From contig CALODV010000013.1 in assembly GCA_942492065.1 (NCBI GenBank), positions 20,989 through 84,988 of the forward strand: 64,000 nt of DNA, written 5' to 3'. Positions within the stretch are counted from its first letter, which is position 1. Each line of letters begins with the position of its first letter. The notes below the pieces were generated by a model. It ran no database searches. It saw nothing but the letters and a program-made list of their open reading frames with translations, and had not been told where the DNA came from. The DNA comes from Candidatus Cloacimonadales bacterium. Lineage in GTDB: Bacteria > Cloacimonadota > Cloacimonadia > Cloacimonadales > JAIOQZ01. Both the position numbers and the translations under genes were made by a program. Of the stretch, positions 534-43,699 are shown piece after piece.

Positions 534-646
534 AAATTTCTCTCAGGAAACGAAGAATTTGACAAAATTTATTTGTTTCATTTGATAGTACATGTAAAAT
601 AACTTATCATAAGTTTATATATTCTGAGATTACGGAAGGAGAATTA

Positions 647-32921: not shown

Positions 32922-34121
32922 CTACTTGTAAAATGGTTTGATTACTCTTTCCAGCACTCCATGGAGCTTGGATATTGCAACCCCGTAGTTGGTTATCGGA
33001 ACTCCTCGTCGATTACACTCACGCATTCGTCGGATCATCTCCATTCTGTTTGTCATACAGGCCCCACAATGAAGCACAAGCTTATACTCCTCCAGATTAT
33101 CCGGGAAATCATGACCTGAGTATACATCAAACTTAATATCCTTACCGGTATACTGTCTCAGCCAACGTGGAATCTTTACTCTGCCAATATCGTCAGCCTG
33201 AACATGATGGGAACAGGACTCAGCTATAACAACCTTGTCTCCGTCCTCAAGCTTATCTATCGCAGATGCTCCATCTACAAGCATACCCAGTTCACCTTTA
33301 TATCTAGCGAACAGTGTTGAGAATGTTGTCAGAGGAATCTCTTCAGGTACATCTCCGTCAACCTTAAGAATCACCTGAGAGTCAGTAATAATTAGATCTG
33401 GTGGATTTTTCAGCTTCATAAGCGAGTCTTCCAGCTCACGTTCTTTAACCATAATACCGATGGCATCATTATCGAGAATTTCTCTCAACACCTGAACCTG
33501 CGGCATAATCAGTCTACCCTTAGGTGCAGCTAAGTCAATTGGTACAACCAGCACAACCTGATCTCCGGGGTTAACCAGATCACCCACAAGAACTCTTTCA
33601 GCAAGAAATTCCGTCGGAACCAGATCAGCCATTTTCTCTTTCATATCTCTGATGTTCTTCCCCGATTTACTCGAAACTGAGATATAAGGCAAACCAATTA
33701 ATCTGCAATAATCCTTGTTGGATTTATCAACTTCTGATATATCATTCTTGTTAAACACAACCATGGTAGTTATACTCAGATTTCGCACTTCCTCAATGAT
33801 TGCTTTGACATCATCTGTTATACCGTGTTCATCTGTTACGATAAGAGCAATATCTGTACGCCAGAGGACTTTACGTGTTGACTTCACTCGCTTCTCCCCC
33901 AACTCACCAAGGTCATCTATTCCGGCTGTATCTATTATAGAAACCGGGCCGATGGGCAACAGCTCATAGTTCTTTTTAACCGGATCTGTAGTTGTTCCGG
34001 GAGTATTGGATACAATCGATATATCCTGACTGGTCATGGCGTTTATCAGGGAGGACTTCCCTGCGTTACGCTTACCGATAATAGCTATATTGCAACGTTC
34101 ACCTTTAGGAATTGCCGGCAT
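32922..34121 (-). CDS. hydF: [FeFe]-hydrogenase maturation GTPase HydF
   Basis: G1 motif GKRNAGKSS and the C-terminal CxHx(n)HCxxC motif (CSHH…HCGAC). ATG at 34121 after AAGGAG. The track start at 34166 is further upstream. Confidence 0.9.
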   Translation of the reverse strand: MPAIPKGERCNIAIIGKRNAGKSSLINAMTSQDISIVSNTPGTTTDPVKKNYELLPIGPVSIIDTAGIDDLGELGEKRVKSTRKVLWRTDIALIVTDEHGITDDVKAIIEEVRNLSITTMVVFNKNDISEVDKSNKDYCRLIGLPYISVSSKSGKNIRDMKEKMADLVPTEFLAERVLVGDLVNPGDQVVLVVPIDLAAPKGRLIMPQVQVLREILDNDAIGIMVKERELEDSLMKLKNPPDLIITDSQVILKVDGDVPEEIPLTTFSTLFARYKGELGMLVDGASAIDKLEDGDKVVIAESCSHHVQADDIGRVKIPRWLRQYTGKDIKFDVYSGHDFPDNLEEYKLVLHCGACMTNRMEMIRRMRECNRRGVPITNYGVAISKLHGVLERVIKPFYK

Positions 34122-35184
34122 CTTTACTCCTTGCCTTAAAGTGAGGAGAATCACCAAGTTCCCCATAGCCTATTGTTTCACCAACAGATTCTATTCTGTT
34201 CTCCAGACATGCTCTGCACATGCTGGCATTTTCATCTACACATGGTTTATCATCATATAAGAGGTATTTTTCTCTGTATTTAGTATCTGTAAGAACAGGC
34301 ATGATAATATTTGCCCCGGCCTTTAATCCGTACTCTCTACCAAGCGGATCAAGTGCCTGCAATGCCGTTGTTGAGGCTATGTTAACATCCTTCAGGAAAA
34401 GACGAGTCAGGGAAATCATTTTGAGTGCTTTTCCCAGCTGAACTTTCTTGTCATAATCGGGCATGGAGTTTGCCATAGGAGTATCCTGATGCACAACATA
34501 AGGTCCCATTCCTATCATATCAATATCGTGCTCCTTGAAGAACATGATATCGTTCACCAGATCCTCGTAAGTCTGGTTCGGTAGCCCGATCATTACACCT
34601 GTTCCAACCTGATAACCTGTTTCACGCAGATATTCCAGGCATCTCAATCTCTCTGTATGATCGTGCGTTGCAGGATGAAGGCTTTTATACAGTTCCTCAT
34701 TGCTGGACTCAATTCTCAGCAGGTATCTTGTCGCACCTGCTTCGAACCATCTTCTGTAGGTTTCTTTTGATTGTTCACCCAGAGAAAGTGTGATTCCCAG
34801 CTCCTGATTAGAAAGCTTTTTGATGTTGATCAGCAGATCCTCTATGTAATCTACAAATTCTTTGTCACAGCGTTCTCCGGATTGTAGTACAACAGAACCG
34901 TATTTCATCTTCCAGGACCATTCTGCTGCTTCCAGAATCTCTTCCTTCTTCATGAAATATCTGTTTACTTTGCTGTTGCTCTTTCTGATCCCGCAATAAA
35001 AACAGTCTTTATCGCAGATGTTACTAAGCTCGATTATTCCTCTGAAATATACTTTATTGCCTACATTCTGCTCTTTTACAGCGTAAGCCTGCTTGTAGAG
35101 CTCTTCTATAAGAGCCTGATCTTCGGATTGAAAAACCTCGATCATTTGTTGTTTGGTAAGATTTTTAAAATCGTAATTCATCAT
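34105..35184 (-). CDS. hydE: [FeFe]-hydrogenase maturase HydE (radical SAM)
   Basis: CDKDCFYCG radical-SAM motif. Biotin-synthase-like length. Sits between aspA and hydF. Confidence 0.9.
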   Translation of the reverse strand: MMNYDFKNLTKQQMIEVFQSEDQALIEELYKQAYAVKEQNVGNKVYFRGIIELSNICDKDCFYCGIRKSNSKVNRYFMKKEEILEAAEWSWKMKYGSVVLQSGERCDKEFVDYIEDLLINIKKLSNQELGITLSLGEQSKETYRRWFEAGATRYLLRIESSNEELYKSLHPATHDHTERLRCLEYLRETGYQVGTGVMIGLPNQTYEDLVNDIMFFKEHDIDMIGMGPYVVHQDTPMANSMPDYDKKVQLGKALKMISLTRLFLKDVNIASTTALQALDPLGREYGLKAGANIIMPVLTDTKYREKYLLYDDKPCVDENASMCRACLENRIESVGETIGYGELGDSPHFKARSKDAGNS

Positions 35185-36619
35185 CCGTATATCCTAATTT
35201 GTACATTTTTGTAGGAGACAGAATCTCCTGGATTTTTTCTTCACTAATTATATTGTTTTCTATGAGATATTCACTTATTGACTGCCCCTTCTTCCCTGCT
35301 TCGATCACGATTTCTTCTACTTTATCGTAACCAAGAACCGGAACCAGCACAGTTGCAATTATTGGAGAATTAAACAGTTTCTGTCTGCATACATCCTTAT
35401 TGGCTGTTATGCCGTCTATACAATGAGTTCTGAACTTAATTGAAGCTGTGTTGAGCAGTTCCAGCGACTGCATGATGTTATGTGTAAGTAATGGCAGAAA
35501 CTGGTTCAGCTCAAGATTCCCCAGAGCTGTAACCTGAGTTATAACTGCATCATTTCCCATTACCTGTAAGGCTGATTGTGCGACAAACTCCGGAATCACA
35601 GGGTTTACTTTGGTTGGCATGATTGTTGATCCCTTCTGAACTTTGGGGAGGTTGATCTCCCCCAGTCCTCCCTGAGGTCCACTGCTCAGCAGTCGAAGAT
35701 CGTTAGCAATCTTGAACAGATTGGCAGCAAAAGCTTTGAGCATGCCTGAAACCTCTGCGAAAGCATCTACATTCTGGGTTGCATCAATCAGGTTTTCACC
35801 TCTGGCAAGATTCAGTCCCGTCAGCCTTCTCAGTACTTCAGTAACCTTGAAGATATACTTGCGTGGAGCACCAAGTCCTGTACCGATAGCGGTTCCTCCA
35901 AGATTAACAACCTTGATACGTTCTCTGGACTTGAATATACGCCATCTGTCACGAGCTATAGCATCGGAATATGCACTGAACTCCATCCCAAGGGTCAACG
36001 GTACAGCATCCTGAAGCTGTGTTCTGCCTGTCTTGACAACATTTTGAAACTCACGCTCCTTTTCCTGTAGTGACTCCTGCAAAAATGTTATGCTCTTTTC
36101 CAGCTCTTTAAGATACAGCAGTATAGCAACCTTGAGAGAAGTGGGATAAACATCATTCGTTGACTGATGCATATTCACATCTTTCAGAGGATGGATATAA
36201 CTGAAATCTCCTACAGCATGTCCGGCTTTCACATTAGCAAGATTCGCTATAACCTCGTTGAAATTCATGTTTGTTGAAGTACCGGCACCACCCTGGAAAG
36301 GTGACACAACAAACTCATCATGATGTTCACCTGCAATAATCTCCTTGCACACAGCTTCGATCAGGTCAGCTTTCTCCTGATCCATATAGCCAAGCAGACT
36401 GTTAGTTCTGGCACATGCCTGTTTCACATAAGCAAAAGCTTTTATGAACATGCCGTGCATCTTCTCAGGGGATTCCCCGAAATTATCCACAGCTCTGCAG
36501 GTTTGTGCCCCGTACATCACATTTGACGGTACTTCGCATTCATCTGTTATATTAGTTCTTATCTCTTTAGAAGTATAAGTCTCTTTCACCGTTTTTAATC
36601 CTCTGGATTCTTTTTTCAA
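35165..36619 (-). CDS. aspA: Aspartate ammonia-lyase (aspartase/fumarase class II family) embedded in the hyd maturase operon
   Basis: Signature GSTIMPTKVNP. N-terminus aligns to AspA (IRxxxDxxGxxEVPxxxxYG). Probably a TTG start. Confidence 0.85.
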   Translation of the reverse strand: MKKESRGLKTVKETYTSKEIRTNITDECEVPSNVMYGAQTCRAVDNFGESPEKMHGMFIKAFAYVKQACARTNSLLGYMDQEKADLIEAVCKEIIAGEHHDEFVVSPFQGGAGTSTNMNFNEVIANLANVKAGHAVGDFSYIHPLKDVNMHQSTNDVYPTSLKVAILLYLKELEKSITFLQESLQEKEREFQNVVKTGRTQLQDAVPLTLGMEFSAYSDAIARDRWRIFKSRERIKVVNLGGTAIGTGLGAPRKYIFKVTEVLRRLTGLNLARGENLIDATQNVDAFAEVSGMLKAFAANLFKIANDLRLLSSGPQGGLGEINLPKVQKGSTIMPTKVNPVIPEFVAQSALQVMGNDAVITQVTALGNLELNQFLPLLTHNIMQSLELLNTASIKFRTHCIDGITANKDVCRQKLFNSPIIATVLVPVLGYDKVEEIVIEAGKKGQSISEYLIENNIISEEKIQEILSPTKMYKLGYTDDELRF

Positions 36620-37973
36620 CTTCAGCTTTCATTTTGCTGTCATCAAGCTTTTCAAGTTCTCTTTCAATAAGTTTGATTCCTGAAGCTCTTGTCTCAGGAG
36701 TAGCATAGTCTTCCACATATTCGAGGAATGTAAGTATAGCATTTGGTGAGCAGTAACGTTTAACAAATCCGGGAATAGCAAATTCCATGAAGTGTTCACC
36801 GGTTCTGCCAAGTCTGTAGCAGCCTGTGCAGAAACTAGGAATAAAATTGTGATCTGCAAGCTCTTTGATAACTTCGTCCAGAGTTCTGGAGTCGGATAGT
36901 GTGAACTGCTCTTTCTTGCTTGTATGATCTTCTGAAGAATAATCACCTATACCAATTGCTGATCCTGCATCGATCTGGGATACGCCGTAATTGATAACTT
37001 CATTACGAATATCAATCGGTTCACGAGCAGTGAGAATCAGTCCGGTGTATGGTACCGCAAGTCGAAGAATAGCAACCAGTTTTTTGAAGTCATCATCAGA
37101 TACAAGGTGAGGAGGTCGTTTTGTGAAATCTGTATTGAAGGCAGGCTCTATCCGTGGGAATGAAATAGTATGAGGTCCAATGTTAAAGCGTTCTTCCAGA
37201 TGCATAGTGTGATAAAGCAATCCCATTACTTCAAAACGCCAGTCATACAAGCCCATGAGAGCTCCGATGCCGAGGTCATCGATTCCTGCTTCCATTGCTC
37301 TGTCCAGACCGTGAAGTCTCCACAGATAGTTACTCTTAGGTCCGCGAGGGTGAACTTGTTTATAGGTTTCTTCGTGGTATGTTTCCTGGAATATCTGGTA
37401 AGTTCCGATTCCTGCTTTCTTTACGATTTTGTAACCTTCTACATCAAGTGGAGCTGCGTTGATATTAACGCGACGGATTTCCCCGTTTCCTTTCTTAGTA
37501 GCATAGACTTTCATTACTGTGTCATGAATAAACTGTGCATCATATTTAGGGTGTTCTCCATATACCATAATCAGGCGTTTGTGACCGTTATCCACGAGTG
37601 ATTCTACTTCCATGCCGAGTTTCTGCATAGTGAGAGTATTTCTCTCCGCTTCGGTATTGGAAGATCGGAATCCGCAGTACACACAATCGTTAATGCAGTC
37701 GTTTCCAACGTAAAGAGGAGCAAAAAGCACGATTCTGTTACCGTATACTCTTTCTTTAAGAGTACGAGCTCCCTGTTTGATTTCTTCAACCAGATCTTCG
37801 TCTGTTGCGTTTATAAGACATGCCATTTCATAAGGATCAAGGCGGTTTTTATCCAGTGATTTCTGAATAATATCCTTAATTTGAGCTCTGTCAGGATTCT
37901 TTGTTTTAGTAAGATCCTCAAAGATTTTGTCATTCGGAATGAATGATTTGAGACCTGTTGTATCTAGTACCAT
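36567..37973 (-). CDS. hydG: [FeFe]-hydrogenase maturase HydG (radical SAM tyrosine lyase)
   Basis: CINDCVYCGF radical-SAM motif and a C-terminal CTGCYRLG…H auxiliary-cluster motif. ATG after AGAGG. Confidence 0.9.
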   Translation of the reverse strand: MVLDTTGLKSFIPNDKIFEDLTKTKNPDRAQIKDIIQKSLDKNRLDPYEMACLINATDEDLVEEIKQGARTLKERVYGNRIVLFAPLYVGNDCINDCVYCGFRSSNTEAERNTLTMQKLGMEVESLVDNGHKRLIMVYGEHPKYDAQFIHDTVMKVYATKKGNGEIRRVNINAAPLDVEGYKIVKKAGIGTYQIFQETYHEETYKQVHPRGPKSNYLWRLHGLDRAMEAGIDDLGIGALMGLYDWRFEVMGLLYHTMHLEERFNIGPHTISFPRIEPAFNTDFTKRPPHLVSDDDFKKLVAILRLAVPYTGLILTAREPIDIRNEVINYGVSQIDAGSAIGIGDYSSEDHTSKKEQFTLSDSRTLDEVIKELADHNFIPSFCTGCYRLGRTGEHFMEFAIPGFVKRYCSPNAILTFLEYVEDYATPETRASGIKLIERELEKLDDSKMKAEVEKRIQRIKNGERDLYF

Positions 37974-37989
37974 AATTACCTCTGTATTT

Positions 37990-38238
37990 TTAATCTGTTT
38001 TTAATGTTGTGGATTTGACTTTTACGGATTTGATCTGACCCAATTTTCCTGTCAGTGCTCCGAGTTCGTCAGTTGTCATTTCTGCAACTAGAAAAATAAT
38101 TGCAATATCACGGTCTTTCACCGGATACCCTACCCGCAGTAATAGTTCATCTGCGTAGTCATGTAAAATTGTATTAACCTGTTTATACGCTTCTTCGCGT
38201 TTATATACTGTTATAGAAACATTATGTATTCTTTTCAT
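37990..38238 (-). CDS. TM1266-like small ACT-fold protein (so-called iron-only hydrogenase system regulator family)
   Basis: 82 aa starting at the ATG at 38238 (MKRIHNVSITVYKREEAY…). Sits immediately upstream of hydG as in many hyd loci. The track start at 38268 is a GTG. Confidence 0.7.
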   Translation of the reverse strand: MKRIHNVSITVYKREEAYKQVNTILHDYADELLLRVGYPVKDRDIAIIFLVAEMTTDELGALTGKLGQIKSVKVKSTTLKTD

Positions 38239-38239
38239 G

Positions 38240-38275
38240 AAAAAAACCTCCGGTCCACACAGGGACACGGAGGTT
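38240..38275 (-). terminator. Strong intrinsic terminator hairpin whose 3' arm contains the GGAGG Shine-Dalgarno of the TM1266-like gene
   Basis: Minus strand reads ACCTCCGTGTCCctgtgtGGACCGGAGGT, then TTTTTTT, then C-ATG. Confidence 0.6.
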
Positions 38276-38355
38276 ATAATAGTATCTATCTCCCTATCCC
38301 TGAATGTTAGACTTACTCCTTCATCTCAGGACAGTTTATAAATTCTTTTTTCTAT

Positions 38356-38383
38356 ATTATACTAAATTATTACAGTCAGACAA
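38356..38383 (-). promoter_or_regulatory. Candidate internal promoter (TTGTCT, 16-nt spacer, TATAAT) for the TM1266-hydG-aspA-hydE-hydF unit
   Basis: Hexamers read on the minus strand about 110 nt upstream of the TM1266 ATG. Confidence 0.35.
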
Positions 38384-38437
38384 CATTTAATTATATAAAT
38401 TTTTAATATTAAATTTTGTCCTTCGCAAAATTTCTAT

Positions 38438-40231
38438 TTAGTGATGATCTTTACCTGTAACTTGCTCAACTACATGACCCTTGAATTTTTCTCTTGAGTA
38501 GTAGTGAGTGTGAAGCAGATGGTGAGCTTTATGTCCACCAGGACCTTCAGGAAGGAAGTTACCTTCGCCATAGAGTCCCATTACAGCTTCGTTATGGTGT
38601 GAGCATCTTGCAGGAAGATTTCTATCATCTTCATACAGTCTTTCACCACGGCGTGCACGGTCAGCCATTGAGTTACCGAATGGTTGTCCACCACCGCCAA
38701 CACATCCACCAGGGCAAGCCATGATTTCAATGAATGTATATTCGCTCTTACCTGTTTCTTTGATTTGCTTTTGAACTTTTTCCATGAGTTTTCTTGCATT
38801 TCCAAGTCCGTGAGCAACAGCAACTTTAACAGTAAGGTCTGGTGTGAGAGCAACTTCAGCTTCTTTGATACCTTTAAGACCACGAACAGGTGTTATTTCT
38901 ACATCACCAAGGTCTTTTTTATTTACAAGCCAGTATACTGAACGCAGTGCAGCTTCCATAACACCACCTGTAGCACCAAAAATAGTTCCGGCACCGGTGT
39001 GATGTGAAAGTTCATAATATGGTTCTTCTTCAGGAAGGTTTTTGAAATCCATACCTGCTTCGTGAATCATTCTGATTAATTCTCTGGTTGTAAGAACGTA
39101 ATCTACGTCTTGATATTTAGAATCAGACATTTCATCTCTTTGAGCTTCGAATTTTTTAGCTGTACAAGGCATGATTGATACAGATACTATATCTTTTGCA
39201 TCAATACTTTTTTGTTCAGCATAGTATGTTTTTGCAAGTGTACCCATCATTTGCTGAGGTGACTTTGCAGTTGATACATGGTGTGCAAGATCAGGGAAGA
39301 ATGTTTCCATGAACTTAACCCAACCAGGTGAACATGATGTTATACATGGTAACGGACCGCCATTAACAACACGATCAACAACTTCTGAACCTTCTTCGAT
39401 GATTGTAAGGTCAGCAGTAAAGTTTGTATCAAATACACCGTCGAAACCAAGTCTCTTAAGTGCTGCATACATTTTACCAATATTTACTTCACCAAATTCC
39501 ATTCCGAATTCTTCACCGAGTGAAGCGCGGATAGATGGAGCTTCCTGTACAACAACGTGTTTTGTAGGATCAAGAAGAGCATCCCATACTTTTGCTGTAT
39601 CGTCTTTTTCATGTAATGCGCCTGTTGGGCAGTATACTGTACACTGACCACAATTAACACATACAGAGTTAGCCATACCAAGACTTAAAGCTGTATCGAT
39701 TTTTGTTTCGAATCCACGGTTTGAGAATGTCAGTGCATTAACTGTCTGACCATCTGAACAAACCTGAACACAGCGTCCACAGTTGATACATTTATTAACG
39801 TCTCTAACTATAGAAACTGAAGAATAATCAACTGGAACTTTTTTAAGCATGCTTGGAACAGCTTCAGGATCGATATCTAATGTATACGCGATTTCCTGTA
39901 ATTCACATTTACCGTTCGCAACACATGTAGGACATGTAACATCGTGATTTGCAAGTATAAGTTCGATGAGAGTTTTTCTTGCTTCACGGAGTTTTTTGCT
40001 GTTTGTGGTTACTTTCATTCCTTCCCAAACTTCTGTTGAACAAGCTCTTTTTGGGACTGGAGAGCCTTCGATATCTACAATACAAACACCACATGCTGAA
40101 GTTGGTTTCCAGTCAGGGTGGTAGCATAATGTAGGAACGTTGTAACCTGCTTTCTTCGCAGCCTGGATTAACGTTGTACCTTGAGGTACTTCTACCTCAA
40201 TTTTGTTAATCGTAAGTTTAACATTACTCAT
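38438..40231 (-). CDS. hydA: [FeFe] hydrogenase catalytic subunit HydA (M3-type: 2Fe-2S, His-ligated 4Fe-4S, two ferredoxin-like 4Fe-4S, H-domain)
   Basis: The N-terminal 2Fe-2S Cys pattern, the His-ligated HDVTCPTCVANGKC, and two CxxCxxCxxxCP motifs precede the H-cluster motifs. L1 reads TSCSPGW, L2 reads MPCTAKKFE, and L3 reads EIMACPGGCVGGGGQP. Confidence 0.92.
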   Translation of the reverse strand: MSNVKLTINKIEVEVPQGTTLIQAAKKAGYNVPTLCYHPDWKPTSACGVCIVDIEGSPVPKRACSTEVWEGMKVTTNSKKLREARKTLIELILANHDVTCPTCVANGKCELQEIAYTLDIDPEAVPSMLKKVPVDYSSVSIVRDVNKCINCGRCVQVCSDGQTVNALTFSNRGFETKIDTALSLGMANSVCVNCGQCTVYCPTGALHEKDDTAKVWDALLDPTKHVVVQEAPSIRASLGEEFGMEFGEVNIGKMYAALKRLGFDGVFDTNFTADLTIIEEGSEVVDRVVNGGPLPCITSCSPGWVKFMETFFPDLAHHVSTAKSPQQMMGTLAKTYYAEQKSIDAKDIVSVSIMPCTAKKFEAQRDEMSDSKYQDVDYVLTTRELIRMIHEAGMDFKNLPEEEPYYELSHHTGAGTIFGATGGVMEAALRSVYWLVNKKDLGDVEITPVRGLKGIKEAEVALTPDLTVKVAVAHGLGNARKLMEKVQKQIKETGKSEYTFIEIMACPGGCVGGGGQPFGNSMADRARRGERLYEDDRNLPARCSHHNEAVMGLYGEGNFLPEGPGGHKAHHLLHTHYYSREKFKGHVVEQVTGKDHH

Positions 40232-42300: not shown

Positions 42301-42663
42301 TTATTCTGCTGCAGCAACGTATTCTGCTACAACTTCTCCACCGATGATGTGTTTTTCCATTACTTCGGCAACTTTTTCAGGATTCATGTATCCGTATGTA
42401 ACTTGAGGCATGTCTTTTACGTATACATCTACTACAGGTTCCATTGAGGAAATTCCTTTTTCTCCTGTTTGTGTTACAACAACATCAGTAAGCCCTTTTG
42501 CCTGGATTGCTTCCAGGAATGCTTTCATTACCTGACGGGCACCCATTGCGATTCCGGATGTTCCCATGGAAACAACAATCTTTACACGGTGATCAGCATT
42601 TCTTAAAGCCATGTTTTGCTGAGCTTTTTCTCTGATCTTACGTAATTCTTCGAGTTTTTTCAT
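42301..42663 (-). CDS. Small thioredoxin-like (NuoE/HndB-fold) protein lacking all cluster-ligating cysteines
   Basis: 120 aa with the pattern KIVVSMGTSG…VVVTQTGEKGISSMEPVVDVYV…Y…PE, which matches the Trx-like 2Fe-2S ferredoxin fold with Cys replaced. GGAGG Shine-Dalgarno. Confidence 0.55.
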   Translation of the reverse strand: MKKLEELRKIREKAQQNMALRNADHRVKIVVSMGTSGIAMGARQVMKAFLEAIQAKGLTDVVVTQTGEKGISSMEPVVDVYVKDMPQVTYGYMNPEKVAEVMEKHIIGGEVVAEYVAAAE

Positions 42664-42697: not shown

Positions 42698-43342
42698 TTA
42701 TTTGTATTCTATCAAATTTCTTTTGTTATGGTGGTAGGTTACCACTGCCATGTTGCAGTACAGACAAGTCTGCTCCACAAACACATATTCAGGCACTTTA
42801 ATGCGGACGGTAGTAAAGTTCCACAAAGTAGTAATCTTGTTATCGACAAGCATATCCGCCGCATTCTGTGCTTCTGAAGCAGGGGTTGCAATGATTCCAA
42901 CCTGAATATCAAATTCATCACGGATTTTTTCGAGGTCTTCATTTGAATAGACTTTGAGTCCTTTTACATGTGTTCCGAATTTTGCAGGATCGTTATCTGT
43001 TAGAGCTTTAATACTTAAGCCTGTAACATTCATATCGTGATAACGCAGCAGCGCTCTGGCGAGGTTTCCTGCCCCAACCACGATTGTATTGAGGGAATGA
43101 TCCCAGCCTAAGAATTCTTCGATTAAAATGATTGACTCGTCAACTTTGTGACCGACTCTTGGTTTCCCTGTGAGTCCTGCGATAGTAAGGTCTTTTCTGA
43201 CCTGAGTAGGATATATTTTTAAATTGCGTGCTATTTCTGAAGCCGAAGTAAATTCCACATCGGCTGCTTTGAGTTCTTTTAAAAATTCAAGGTATAACGG
43301 TAAACGACGTATAGTATACAATGAAACAGAATCATTCATCAT
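42698..43342 (-). CDS. rex: Redox-sensing transcriptional repressor Rex
   Basis: N-terminal winged helix (YTIRRLPLYLEFL) and a Rossmann GxGxxG region (VVGAGNLARAL). ATG at 43342 after GGAAGGA. The track start at 43360 is a TTG. Confidence 0.85.
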   Translation of the reverse strand: MMNDSVSLYTIRRLPLYLEFLKELKAADVEFTSASEIARNLKIYPTQVRKDLTIAGLTGKPRVGHKVDESIILIEEFLGWDHSLNTIVVGAGNLARALLRYHDMNVTGLSIKALTDNDPAKFGTHVKGLKVYSNEDLEKIRDEFDIQVGIIATPASEAQNAADMLVDNKITTLWNFTTVRIKVPEYVFVEQTCLYCNMAVVTYHHNKRNLIEYK

Positions 43343-43699
43343 TAATTCAGTTCCTTCCAATTCAATATTTTTATATCAATATTTTTGGGTCGATTTTAAA
43401 GTCAAGCTAAATATTAGTTTTTTTACACCTTTTTTCGGGGTATAAATCAATGGCTATTATAAAGTGTGTTATGGCTGTATTTTGGCTTGAGATAAGGGCT
43501 GAATGTTAGCCAAGGGTAACTTGGGGGAAAGGTATTTCAGAAGGAGGATTTAGCGATTAACAGTTAAGTTTTCACTACTAGGATTCAAAAAGGATTGACA
43601 GACTTATCTTTGATCTTAGCATTGTCCTATAATTCATTATAGGAGTGACCATTATGATTCGTGAGCTTACAGAAAAAATGAAAAAGGAAAGATATATCC

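Follow-up and report, generated by a model that had tools for sequence, protein, structure and literature searches.

A Conserved Symmetric Hairpin in a Probable Attenuator Upstream of TM1266-Like Genes and [FeFe]-Hydrogenase Maturase Operons

Organization of the Locus

The 64-kb stretch of DNA analyzed here (the window) carries a [FeFe]-hydrogenase locus in which Pfam places, in order, Rex, a 120-aa protein, HydC, HydB, HydA, a spacer, a TM1266-like protein, HydG, an AspA-like lyase, HydE, and HydF. The spacer separates the hydA stop codon (38440-38438, minus strand) from the TM1266-like gene (37990-38238, minus strand), whose 82-aa product matches PF21699 at 93.3 bits (cut-off 27) and TIGR03959 at 88.2 bits (cut-off 60.8). 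This gene is followed on the same strand by hydG (36567-37973), the aspA-like lyase gene (35165-36619), hydE (34105-35184), and hydF (32922-34166), all assigned with Pfam and NCBIfam; these genes form the downstream cargo of the operon (32922-37973) and are tightly spaced or overlapping. An initial annotation had read the spacer as a promoter, a leader, and a terminator hairpin with an alternative upstream pairing, and all of the sequence features that it named are present on the minus strand where it had placed them. The spacer very probably holds a genuine regulatory RNA, an attenuator, in front of the maturase genes. The whole leader (131 nt) folds at -39.4 kcal/mol (z = -4.1), and a separate, weak AT-rich hairpin lies immediately 3' of the hydA stop codon. 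Searches for the Rex operator (TTGTGAA-N4-TTCACAA, up to three mismatches) returned counts at chance level and no match in the spacer.

A promoter-like element (38356-38383, minus strand) comprises TTGTCT (38383-38378), a 16-nt spacer, and TATAAT (38361-38356), with 10 of 12 consensus matches; the implied transcript would start near 38349 and carry a leader of ~110 nt. This element is present as originally described, but hexamer pairs of its kind are no more frequent than in shuffled sequence (31 found, 33.9 expected), and no relatives apart from the near-identical L001 and L006 share it. The promoter is thus a consensus match only, and transcripts from hydA may read through; judged from the sequence, the TM1266-hydG-aspA-hydE-hydF operon probably has a promoter of its own.

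A Terminator That Buries the Ribosome-Binding Site

Directly before the TM1266-like gene lies an intrinsic terminator (38240-38275, minus strand) that also sequesters the ribosome-binding site. Its 5' arm, AACCUCCG-[U]-GUCC (38275-38263), and its 3' arm, GGAC-CGGAGGUU (38256-38245), enclose the 6-nt loop CUGUGU (38262-38257), and RNAfold predicts a stem of 12 pairs, 8 of them G-C, with a single bulged U (U38267). The GGAGG (38251-38247) is contained within the 3' arm and is followed by a U7 tract (38246-38240), a single C (38239), and the ATG (38238). The hairpin folds at -19.4 kcal/mol (z = -5.4), a value equalled by none of 200 shuffles, and combines the G+C-rich stem-loop and directly adjoining U-tract of an intrinsic terminator. 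The earlier description of a terminator with GGAGG in its 3' arm and a U-tract before the ATG holds, but the stem has 12 bp and a bulged U rather than 11 bp. An automated terminator scan that lists gapless stems only missed the 38275-38245 hairpin, probably because of the bulged U. Hairpins with a terminal U-run beside the start codon recur in leaders from Cloacimonadota, Neomarinimicrobiota, and Thermotogota.

A Conserved, Two-Fold Symmetric Hairpin

Upstream of the terminator, the leader contains a conserved two-fold symmetric hairpin (38294-38334, minus strand), the proposed sensor and anti-antiterminator, which the initial annotation had not described as such. Its 33-nt core (38330-38298) consists of three short helices separated by two 2x2 internal loops; the loops are rich in purines, and an invariant G·U closes each of them. 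P1 pairs CCU (38330-38328) with GGG (38300-38298) and is extended by CUGU (38334-38331) with AUAG (38297-38294); loop 1 sets GA (38327-38326) opposite CA (38302-38301); P2 pairs GAUG (38325-38322) with CAUU (38306-38303); loop 2 sets AA (38321-38320) opposite AA (38308-38307); and P3 pairs GGA (38319-38317) with UCU (38311-38309) below the apical loop GUAAG (38316-38312). The hairpin alone folds at -13.4 kcal/mol and is matched by our model of the element, R1, at 51.5 bits (E = 3e-11), the sole significant match within the window. Both strands read CU-RA-N4-AA-GG, which makes the duplex two-fold symmetric with two invariant G·U pairs; of the 8 non-helical positions, 7.07 on average are identical between the strands, both of which keep an invariant C, U, G, and G. 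The apical part is free to vary from 3 to 12 nt and, by eye, is longer in Spirochaetota.

The same hairpin recurs 5' of TM1266-like genes, on the same strand, at approximately 100 loci in several phyla (81 distinct sequences). Its carriers belong to Cloacimonadota, Ignavibacteriota, Neomarinimicrobiota/Fidelibacterota, Thermotogota, KSB1, Desulfobacterota, Spirochaetota, and Auribacterota MAGs; cultured ones include Marinitoga, Fervidobacterium, Thermotoga, Melioribacter roseus, and Ignavibacterium. Aligned with MAFFT, 55 sequences had 94.4% of their pair cells in standard pairs, compared with 38-63% when the partners were slid, and compensatory changes were found in 6 of the 11 hairpin pairs (33 cells), a value reached by none of 500 shuffles. 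This result stands with the 81 distinct sequences, slid controls spanning 37-66% over the covariation analyses together, and RNAalifold recovers the same helices unaided. The hairpin thus behaves as a structured cis-regulatory RNA family, its structure being kept by compensatory changes in independent lineages. Covariation across relatives had been suggested as a check at the outset, and it reveals both the structure and the switch layout to be conserved.

At the gathering threshold, Rfam 15 yielded no match in the whole window or in 16 related loci. A permissive Rfam scan of the spacer returned only sub-threshold PyrR, L10_leader, and NsiR1 alignments, mostly driven by the terminator, and the same scan of eight leaders from other lineages returned nothing relevant, with no PyrR match at E <= 1. 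In the literature on TM1266, hydrogenase maturation, and riboswitch candidates or structured RNAs, we found no description of the hairpin RNA. With filters off, R1 gave no significant match on Kiritimatiellota, Lentisphaerae, Bacillota, or motif-less loci. Related-looking hairpins are visible by eye in loci of Kiritimatiellota, Lentisphaerae, and Bacillota, and possible tandem copies in Bacillota and Desulfobacterota.

Two other identities for the element were considered and set aside. A kink-turn, which calls for an asymmetric 3-nt bulge and then tandem sheared G·A pairs, does not fit: each internal loop is a symmetric 2x2 (RA opposite NA) with G·U on its flanks. A DNA site of two direct repeats for a transcription factor does not fit either: the two N4 segments complement each other and show covariation, and the helices close with G·U pairs, because of which the element is not a DNA palindrome.

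Antiterminator and Switch Logic

The 3' arm of the conserved hairpin has a second potential partner. The antiterminator 5' strand, CAGGGAUAGGGAG (38302-38290, minus strand), overlaps this arm and can pair at 12 of 13 positions with the 3' strand CUCCGUGUCCCUG (38272-38260, minus strand), which is also the terminator 5' arm. The duplex reaches -21.9 kcal/mol, where shuffled targets average -9.4 (z = -5.2; none of 200 as stable), and is present in the centroid structure of the leader fold; once the hairpin 5' arm is removed, the terminator and antiterminator folds are nearly equal in energy (-21.7 and -21.4, respectively). The alternative pairing of an upstream CAGGGA with the terminator 5' arm, proposed initially, is therefore stronger than claimed, and the CAGGGA proves to be part of the 3' arm of the covarying symmetric hairpin.

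A layout of three parts (upstream hairpin, antiterminator, and terminator or sequestering hairpin) recurs in distant lineages with different sequences, the last hairpin ending 2-10 nt before the start codon. Among 70 distinct leaders, 81% contain a downstream complement of the hairpin 3' arm at z < -2 (median z = -3.65), and in 69% it coincides with the 5' arm of the final hairpin ahead of the start codon. Moreover, the sequences of the 3' arm and of its complement co-vary between lineages. Mutually exclusive structures are thus conserved across relatives, as in an attenuator, and the comparative data support the originally suggested architecture, in which a terminator hiding the ribosome-binding site competes with the upstream CAGGGA pairing.

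The direction of the switch can be approached from the position of the shared arm. In seven loci the hairpin 3' arm, AAGGAGG, is the ribosome-binding site itself, 6-10 nt from the start, so that closure of the hairpin there can only repress. More generally, as the 3' arm is shared with either the antiterminator or the ribosome-binding site, a stabilized hairpin should turn expression off. Switch pairing was judged by the direct duplex test against shuffled targets, which replaced ON/OFF folding. When the hairpin 5' half was blocked in thermodynamic folds, the antiterminator did not form reliably and the terminator was usually more stable. Indeed, the thermodynamic ground state is hairpin plus terminator even without a factor (E_off equals the minimum free energy in most leaders); an ON default thus rests on assumed kinetic strand invasion.

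Linkage to the TM1266-Like Gene

A metagenome scan with the RNA pattern only yielded 35 stretches, of which 34 encode a TM1266-like ORF downstream, in one case truncated where the contig stops; the other is cut by the end of its contig 22 nt past the motif. None of the 35 has a TM1266-like ORF anywhere except downstream of the motif. One motif-bearing metagenome stretch, L098, shows no such ORF in the 1.2 kb available downstream, and may carry an insertion. In two loci another gene comes first, hydE in L061 and an ABC transporter gene in L074, with the TM1266-like gene still in the operon. TM1266-like genes also occur with no detectable motif (L052, L054-L060, and L066). Overall, co-encoding of the motif and the TM1266-like gene is near-universal.

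The remaining cargo is far from constant. Of the canonical loci, 48 have hyd maturase genes, and at least 31 have no hyd genes within 4 kb downstream but encode a TonB-dependent receptor there, sometimes together with EamA or an M18 peptidase. In about 40% of related operons a TonB-dependent receptor and an EamA transporter stand in place of the hyd genes, and other TM1266-like genes adjoin MTA/SAH nucleosidase, amylase, or HD genes. TM1266 is therefore not, as its label of 'iron-only hydrogenase system' protein would have it, always found beside hydE, hydF, and hydG. Likewise, the RNA does head a maturase operon, as the initial annotation held in proposing control of H-cluster maturation, but it is tied to the TM1266-like gene and not to maturation as such. 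Judged from gene neighborhoods, an RNA-TM1266 pair that stays constant while its cargo varies is the pattern of a cis-element with its own trans-factor.

What is known of the protein is largely structural. The TM1266-like alignment profile matches PDB 2NZC (E = 6e-36), and the AlphaFold2 model (pLDDT 95.6) adopts a beta-alpha-beta-beta-alpha-beta fold. Its structural neighbors are 2NZC together with ACT and NikR C-terminal domains, the NikR C-domain giving TM-scores of 0.8-0.85. At E <= 0.001, a structure search returned almost exclusively ACT, NikR-C, or IlvN-type domains; its only RNA-contacting matches, the ribosome-bound RelA ACT domain and a ribosomal protein superposed at 11 A rmsd, were not informative. 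TM1266-like proteins have been structural-genomics orphans since 2006, and the one structure solved among relatives, 2NZC, is that of an apo 'hypothetical protein'. Although annotated as a regulator, the TM1266-like protein has no DNA-binding domain, and the name 'putative regulator' derives from gene neighborhood alone. Its strand-helix topology is the same as that of RRM domains. In the family alignment, R35, G37, P39, and Q68 never vary and R14, D57, and K65 hardly do; as the invariant and near-invariant columns include neither His nor Cys, a NikR-type metal site is unlikely. The protein encoded in the window is not markedly basic (~13 K/R versus 11 D/E by hand count). H26 tracks the canonical RNA, a lead only, as it is confounded by phylogeny and has exceptions in L052, L054, L055, and L058.

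Proposed Mechanism and Alternatives

As we picture it, the spacer would encode a transcription attenuator that also controls translation, with the conserved hairpin as its likely sensor. The ~110-nt leader would first fold the hairpin (38334-38294). Left unclamped, the hairpin 3' arm and the following AGGGAG would pair with the terminator 5' arm through the 12/13 antiterminator helix, allowing polymerase to read through and leaving the GGAGG free. A trans factor that clamps the hairpin would block the antiterminator, so that the terminator (38275-38245 plus U7) forms and transcription stops 1-2 nt before the ATG; the operon would then be OFF, and any read-through RNA would keep its ribosome-binding site buried. 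The factor would most likely be what the first gene encodes, namely the TM1266-like protein, a stand-alone ACT/NikR-C-type domain that is probably an oligomer and possibly carries a small ligand. The predicted outcome is negative autoregulation, as exerted by PyrR on the pyr leader. We infer the OFF polarity and the kinetic order of folding, as well as the nature of the effector and the involvement of a ligand.

On balance we favor, as the best explanation, such a PyrR-like autoregulatory attenuator with the TM1266-like protein as its binding partner. As to whether the effector of the hairpin is a metabolite or a protein, the evidence leans towards a protein, which we regard as moderately probable. 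More tentatively, and with slightly less than even confidence, TM1266-like proteins could represent a new class of RNA-binding attenuation proteins, in which an ACT/NikR-C oligomer sits on a symmetric duplex and, probably in response to a small ligand tied to H-cluster assembly, silences maturase or TonB-receptor/EamA operons.

The main rival to a protein-bound attenuator, rather unlikely in our judgment, is a riboswitch for a small molecule or ion, whose symmetric hairpin would bind one or two copies of the ligand, close P1, and turn the operon off. The ligand would be tied to H-cluster assembly or supply (e.g., an amino-acid substrate, a radical-SAM by-product, an iron species, or an H-cluster precursor), and the TM1266-like gene would simply be the conserved first cargo gene, in which case its linkage to the RNA would be equally expected. 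The conserved and covarying core, with invariant nucleotides concentrated in the two internal loops, is consistent with this, as is the presence of both classic expression platforms, terminator and ribosome-binding-site sequestration. The regulon also mixes biosynthesis (HydG/E/F and the AspA-like lyase) with a TonB-dependent receptor, EamA, and an SsuA-type ABC transporter, a mix of biosynthesis and transport genes typical of cofactor riboswitches, and the possible tandem copies in Bacillota and Desulfobacterota recall tandem riboswitches. However, regulated operons, whatever their cargo, carry a TM1266-like gene of their own, which a metabolite sensor would not need. The element is, moreover, very small, its conserved features being only two equivalent half-sites on a regular duplex, and its apical part varies freely over 3 to 12 nt. 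Its core differs between phyla (in the Bacillota and Kiritimatiellota/Lentisphaerae loci), which is unusual for an aptamer of a universal metabolite, and no candidate ligand accounts for an OFF response of maturases and transporters alike.

It is quite improbable that a real attenuator is read by some other trans factor encoded elsewhere, such as a CsrA-type protein, another RNA-binding protein, or an sRNA. A CsrA-type protein would recognize two A(N)GGA/AAGGG elements, the second overlapping the ribosome-binding site in some lineages. The conserved strands do hold GAAGGA and CAAGGGAUG, both similar to the SELEX consensus for CsrA, RUACARGGAUGU, and two sites ~20 nt apart with one at the ribosome-binding site form a typical CsrA layout. 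The model drawn from covariation nevertheless places the GG dinucleotides in helices, where a CsrA site would present its GGA single-stranded in a hairpin loop: they are invariant and modeled as paired with an invariant CU, and so are themselves unable to covary, while the adjacent pairs do. An exclusive tie to TM1266-like operons is also unlike a global regulator, and the 64-kb window holds a single copy.

Finally, a plain intrinsic terminator of the hydCBA operon, overlapping the next ribosome-binding site by accident and following a functionless leader, is very improbable: the hairpin and U7 do make a textbook terminator downstream of hydA, and the promoter is without statistical support, but the terminator lies ~190 nt beyond the hydA stop, with the separate AT-rich hairpin directly after that stop, its 5' arm co-varies with the 3' arm of the conserved hairpin, and the leader (hairpin, antiterminator, and terminal hairpin) is conserved behind a CBS gene in L002 and behind unrelated or opposite-strand neighbors at many loci, so that it is not simply the hydCBA terminator.

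Significance

To our knowledge, how [FeFe]-hydrogenase maturation is regulated has hardly been described. The protein-bound attenuator offers a testable mechanism: it specifies the nucleotides of an RNA target, predicts an OFF polarity, and can draw on a solved protein structure for docking. The RNA family is new to Rfam 15, is strongly supported by covariation, and occurs in many anaerobic phyla, most of them uncultured. Nor is it confined to hydrogenase loci, as operons of a TonB-dependent receptor and EamA begin with the same pair of RNA and protein gene, hinting at an unrecognized nutrient or cofactor link. If TM1266 is indeed the sensor, H-cluster biosynthesis and the uptake of some other substance would share it, and the TonB-receptor and EamA operons of Ignavibacteriota and relatives would be silenced by it. 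If the effector is instead a metabolite, the RNA would constitute a new riboswitch class for anaerobic metal-cofactor metabolism.

Comparison with Known Systems

ACT and NikR-C domains are oligomeric ligand-sensing modules, and the TM1266-like protein shares their beta-alpha-beta-beta-alpha-beta fold. It differs from NikR itself in lacking the ribbon-helix-helix DNA-binding domain and probably also the metal site, given the absence of invariant or near-invariant His and Cys.

The RNA resembles OFF riboswitches (e.g., preQ1-I, SAM, and TPP) in that a small conserved element places the P1 3' strand either in an antiterminator or at the ribosome-binding site, uses transcriptional and translational platforms according to lineage, and governs both biosynthesis and transport. 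Unlike these riboswitches, it conserves a regular duplex that carries two equivalent half-sites and no junction or pseudoknot pocket, it has no Rfam match, and a particular small protein gene is co-encoded near-universally.

PyrR/pyr attenuation (RF00515) shares the order of elements, with an anti-antiterminator hairpin containing a purine-rich internal region followed by the antiterminator and then the terminator. In both systems the regulator would also be encoded by the first gene of the operon that it represses and would use a small-molecule-binding fold on RNA, a role for which the TM1266-like protein is the candidate here. The window leader aligns with RF00515 over its full length but weakly, at 24.5 bits against a gathering threshold of 54 (E = 0.6), and does not reproduce the PyrR binding consensus. 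No PyrR or pyr genes are involved; the genes downstream are TM1266-like and hyd, or those for a TonB receptor and EamA in relatives. The candidate protein is ACT/NikR-C-like and not a phosphoribosyltransferase, and the leader RNA is two-fold symmetric.

A broader parallel is provided by ribosomal-protein leaders and by TRAP, HutP, and LicT. TRAP and HutP bind repeated triplets, and LicT stabilizes an antiterminator (ON); the RNA described here differs in being a single symmetric hairpin with 2x2 purine loops, and the protein fold is unlike those of all these systems. Among ribosomal-protein leaders, L10_leader aligns weakly with the window leader (16.2 bits against a gathering threshold of 44). 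What these systems have in common with the arrangement proposed here is a cis-acting RNA paired with a protein of the same operon, for which the TM1266-like protein is the candidate, and an RNA that varies between phyla while the protein is conserved.

Leader and conserved hairpin

The minus strand of the window carries a Rex-type redox repressor gene (42698-43360), a 120-aa ORF with weak similarity to 2Fe-2S ferredoxins (42301-42663), hydC, hydB and hydA (38438-40231), and then, beyond a 199-nt spacer, a TM1266-like gene (37990-38238) followed by hydG, an aspartate-ammonia-lyase-like (aspA-like) gene, hydE and hydF. The nearest relative is a Cloacimonadales MAG (OY762463.1; 93% identity for the TM1266-like protein and 98% for HydG). 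In a 72%-identity relative, a conserved 99-aa ORF lies between hydG and the aspA-like gene (L002:7817-8116; L003:2245-2544); it has no Pfam or NCBIfam match and no equivalent in the window.

The initial annotation described a promoter, a leader and a terminator sequestering the TM1266 Shine-Dalgarno sequence, and at the sequence level this layout is confirmed: a 12-bp hairpin with one bulged U holds GGAGG in its 3' arm and is followed by U7, C and ATG. The terminator folds at -19.4 kcal/mol (z = -5.4; as stable in 0/200 shuffles), and the entire leader has a z of -4.1. The promoter fared less well; TTGTCT-16-TATAAT is present at 38383-38356, but it is a consensus match only, in a region not enriched for such matches (31 found vs 33.9 expected). 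Matches to the Rex operator consensus in a simple scan were at chance level only, and none fell inside the spacer. Immediately 3' of the hydA stop codon, a weak AT-rich hairpin, AAAUUUUG-CGAAGGA-CAAAAUUU (38405-38430, minus strand; -5.9 kcal/mol, z = -1.9 for the region), is a possible weak end of the hydCBA transcript, distinct from the strong terminator 150 nt downstream.

Comparison of the 200 nt upstream of TM1266-like genes, from five loci found via close protein relatives and a further 80 (one genome per species), revealed an element that the initial annotation did not see. A 33-nt sequence, CCUGAGAUGAAGG-(loop)-CU(A/G)ACAUCAAGGG, is nearly identical upstream of most sampled genes and occupies 38330-38298 (minus strand) in the window. 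Its hosts include Cloacimonadota, Ignavibacteriota, Neomarinimicrobiota/Fidelibacterota and Thermotogota (Marinitoga, Fervidobacterium), as well as KSB1, Desulfobacterota, Spirochaetota and Auribacterota MAGs. When 55 distinct copies were aligned with MAFFT (A2), the alignment supported a hairpin in which two 2x2 internal loops divide three short helices; unguided RNAalifold returned the same helices. Standard pairs fill 94.4% of the A2 cells, vs 38-63% after a shift of the partners by 1-3 columns, and compensatory double changes occur in 6/11 pairs (33 cells), a level reached by 0/500 shuffles. The figures were the same after metagenome copies were added (A3, 81 distinct sequences).

With R1, a covariance model derived from A2, the window copy reaches 51.5 bits (E = 3e-11), and no second significant copy appears in the 64-kb window. 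Across 681 kb of related loci, all 64 matches at E < 0.03 share the strand of the TM1266 gene, as does one of two weaker matches; the other (15 bits, window 615-644) does not. The element matches no Rfam 15 family, either at the gathering threshold (the window and 16 other loci) or in a permissive scan of eight further leaders, and full-text literature searches found no description of such a hairpin, which is apparently an undescribed RNA. The spacer very probably holds a deeply conserved, covarying cis-regulatory RNA of this undescribed kind, controlling the TM1266-hydG-aspA-hydE-hydF operon.

Linkage to the TM1266-like gene and variable cargo

A metagenome collection was also scanned with an RNA-only pattern, no protein being used, and 35 stretches were returned. 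A full TM1266-like ORF lies 55-160 nt downstream of the motif in 33 stretches; in L104 the ORF is cut by the contig end, and in L105 the contig stops 22 nt past the motif. L098 has no TM1266-like ORF in the remaining 1.2 kb and may carry an insertion. In a Thermotogaceae MAG (L061), hydE comes first, with the TM1266-like gene still within the operon. In a Spirochaetaceae MAG (L074:1207-4228), the genes after the motif (23.7 bits) encode an ABC permease, an ATPase and a binding protein of the SsuA family (aliphatic sulfonate type), and downstream of these lie TM1266-like, aspA-like, hydF and hydE genes.

The canonical motif, with CU-RA-N4-AA-GG on both strands, heads hydG/E/F cargo at 48 loci. 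At least 31 others carry a TonB-dependent receptor instead, with no hyd gene within 4 kb (L007:3874-7574; L011, L019, L045, L062, L071, L076 and at least 24 more); they occur in Ignavibacteriota, Melioribacteraceae, a Cytophagia MAG, KSB1 and some Neomarinimicrobiota. With its CarboxypepD_reg, Plug and barrel domains, the receptor comes closest to heme/siderophore/B12 receptors (below cut-off); an EamA-family transporter or M18 aminopeptidase usually comes next. The name 'iron-only hydrogenase system regulator' is therefore too narrow. The cargo varies while the RNA and the TM1266-like gene are constant; the invariant unit is therefore this pair, which, by analogy with pyrR and its leader, would be the signature of a cis-element with its own trans-factor.

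An 88-nt leader piece containing the whole hairpin is duplicated in L013 (1759-1846 and 3851-3938; 85% identity, 2092 nt apart), an arrangement also present in L101. The L013 copies flank an AbiEi/AbiEii toxin-antitoxin pair inserted before TM1266-hydE-hydG-hydF, a pair that may by now have come under control of the upstream copy.

Variant leaders

In Bacillota leaders a terminator seems to be preceded by a tandem pair of hairpins of the same outline, diverged in sequence, CCUGACCG...CGGGAGGG then CCCUGCGGCAAACAGG...CUGCGGUCAAGGGG. In Desulfobacterota loci a second upstream copy is visible by eye; R1 scores neither it nor the tandem hairpins. These observations cover L064, L065, L067, L069, L072 and L075 (about 130-220 nt before the start of the TM1266-like gene), and also L063, L068 and L080. 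Kiritimatiellota (Tichowtungia, Pontiella) and a source-labelled Lentisphaerae bacterium have a TM1266-aspA-hydF-hydG-hydE maturase operon, with only loosely similar UCUG(A/C)G...AAGG hairpins in the leaders (L121:4066-4223, L122:1037-1204, L124:3950-4150).

No motif was detectable at the TM1266-like gene of four Thermosediminibacterales-type loci (L056:3463-4984, L057, L059, L060). In L056 this gene lies between divIVA and a 5'-methylthioadenosine/S-adenosylhomocysteine nucleosidase gene, whose family also clears 5'-deoxyadenosine, a radical-SAM by-product (HydE, HydG). Residue H26 of the window protein is found in all examined groups with canonical half-sites, including the 43-46%-identical direct Shine-Dalgarno class. 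It is Ser or Thr in variant-RNA lineages (Bacillota, Spirochaetota, Desulfobacterota), an association confounded by phylogeny, and His is also present in four other loci without a motif (L052, L054, L055, L058).

Proposed switch

The alternative pairing suggested in the initial annotation, CAGGGA with UCCCUG, proves stronger than described there, joining CAGGGAUAGGGAG (38302-38290), the hairpin 3' arm plus six following nucleotides, to CUCCGUGUCCCUG (38272-38260), the terminator 5' arm, at 12/13 positions. When the hairpin 5' arm is omitted, the terminator and antiterminator folds are isoenergetic (-21.7 vs -21.4). In 81% of 70 distinct leaders (median z = -3.65) the 3' arm has a downstream complement that significantly outscores shuffled targets, and in 69% this complement forms the 5' arm of the final hairpin before the start codon. 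Arm and complement co-change between lineages, as in ACCGGGGGAGGGGA with CCCCCUCUCCCGG and ACCAAGGAAAGAGGCA with UGCCUCUUUCCUUGG.

Three expression platforms were distinguished: a terminator whose U-run adjoins the start codon (the window and Cloacimonadota, Neomarinimicrobiota and Thermotogota leaders), a terminal hairpin without U-run (Ignavibacteriota type), and direct sequestration, in which the 3' arm, AAGGAGG, doubles as the ribosome-binding site 6-10 nt before the start (seven loci). Because closing the hairpin can only repress in the last class, we infer that the stabilised hairpin means OFF in all three. In equilibrium folds the ground state is already hairpin plus terminator; an ON default would need co-transcriptional strand invasion starting at the free GGGAG toehold. 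The recurrence of this hairpin/antiterminator/terminal-hairpin layout across lineages supports the attenuator or riboswitch originally suggested.

Candidate effectors

Each strand of the duplex reads, 5' to 3', C-U-R-A-(4 paired nt)-A-A-G-G. Both strands are (near-)invariant at C, U, G and G, conservation is 93-100% at the R and A positions, and strand-to-strand identity is 7.07 of 8 symmetric positions per sequence. A half-site therefore consists of one C-G pair and one invariant U·G wobble together with a purine loop (R·A / A·N), and a dyad through the 4-bp middle helix relates the two half-sites. The apical part spans 3 to 12 nt and by eye is much longer in Spirochaetota.

On balance, the TM1266-like protein is the leading candidate for the effector, somewhat more probable than not. 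It is a stand-alone beta-alpha-beta-beta-alpha-beta domain (AlphaFold2 pLDDT 95.6) whose model matches PDB 2NZC, the NikR C-terminal domain and ACT domains. The protein lacks a DNA-binding module and is not notably basic; conservation is complete at R35, G37, P39 and Q68 and nearly so at R14, D57 and K65. A homo-oligomer of such a domain would be a natural candidate reader of a two-fold symmetric duplex, and an ACT-type domain could carry a small co-repressor. A metabolite-binding riboswitch with a small-molecule effector is a serious rival, and a regulon of biosynthesis and transport genes fits it well; against it, every operon keeps its own TM1266-like gene and the RNA core drifts between phyla (Bacillota and Kiritimatiellota/Lentisphaerae loci). 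A small molecule is the less likely effector of the two. A DNA palindrome or direct repeat would not give invariant G·U pairs and a covarying middle helix, and the symmetry is for that reason a property of the RNA.

With the TM1266-like protein as candidate reader, its hitherto unexplained 'putative regulator' label becomes a directly testable mechanism, relevant to RNA regulation and hydrogenase maturation, and the regulator is linked to TonB-dependent transport.

Comparison with known systems

With its symmetric 2x2 loops, the element is not a kink-turn. Its AAGGA/AAGGGAUG resembles CsrA sites, but its GG dinucleotides are modelled as paired and it is operon-specific. OFF riboswitches share its expression platforms, although a ligand for the element, if any, is putative. 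As in PyrR attenuation, an anti-antiterminator hairpin is combined with a reader from the operon's first gene (here the candidate TM1266-like protein); yet the element reaches 24.5 bits where the gathering score is 54, has no match in other lineages and lacks pyr genes, and it is not a member of the PyrR family. The element is a new family within a known attenuator class and, together with the TM1266-like protein, probably a new protein-RNA pairing.
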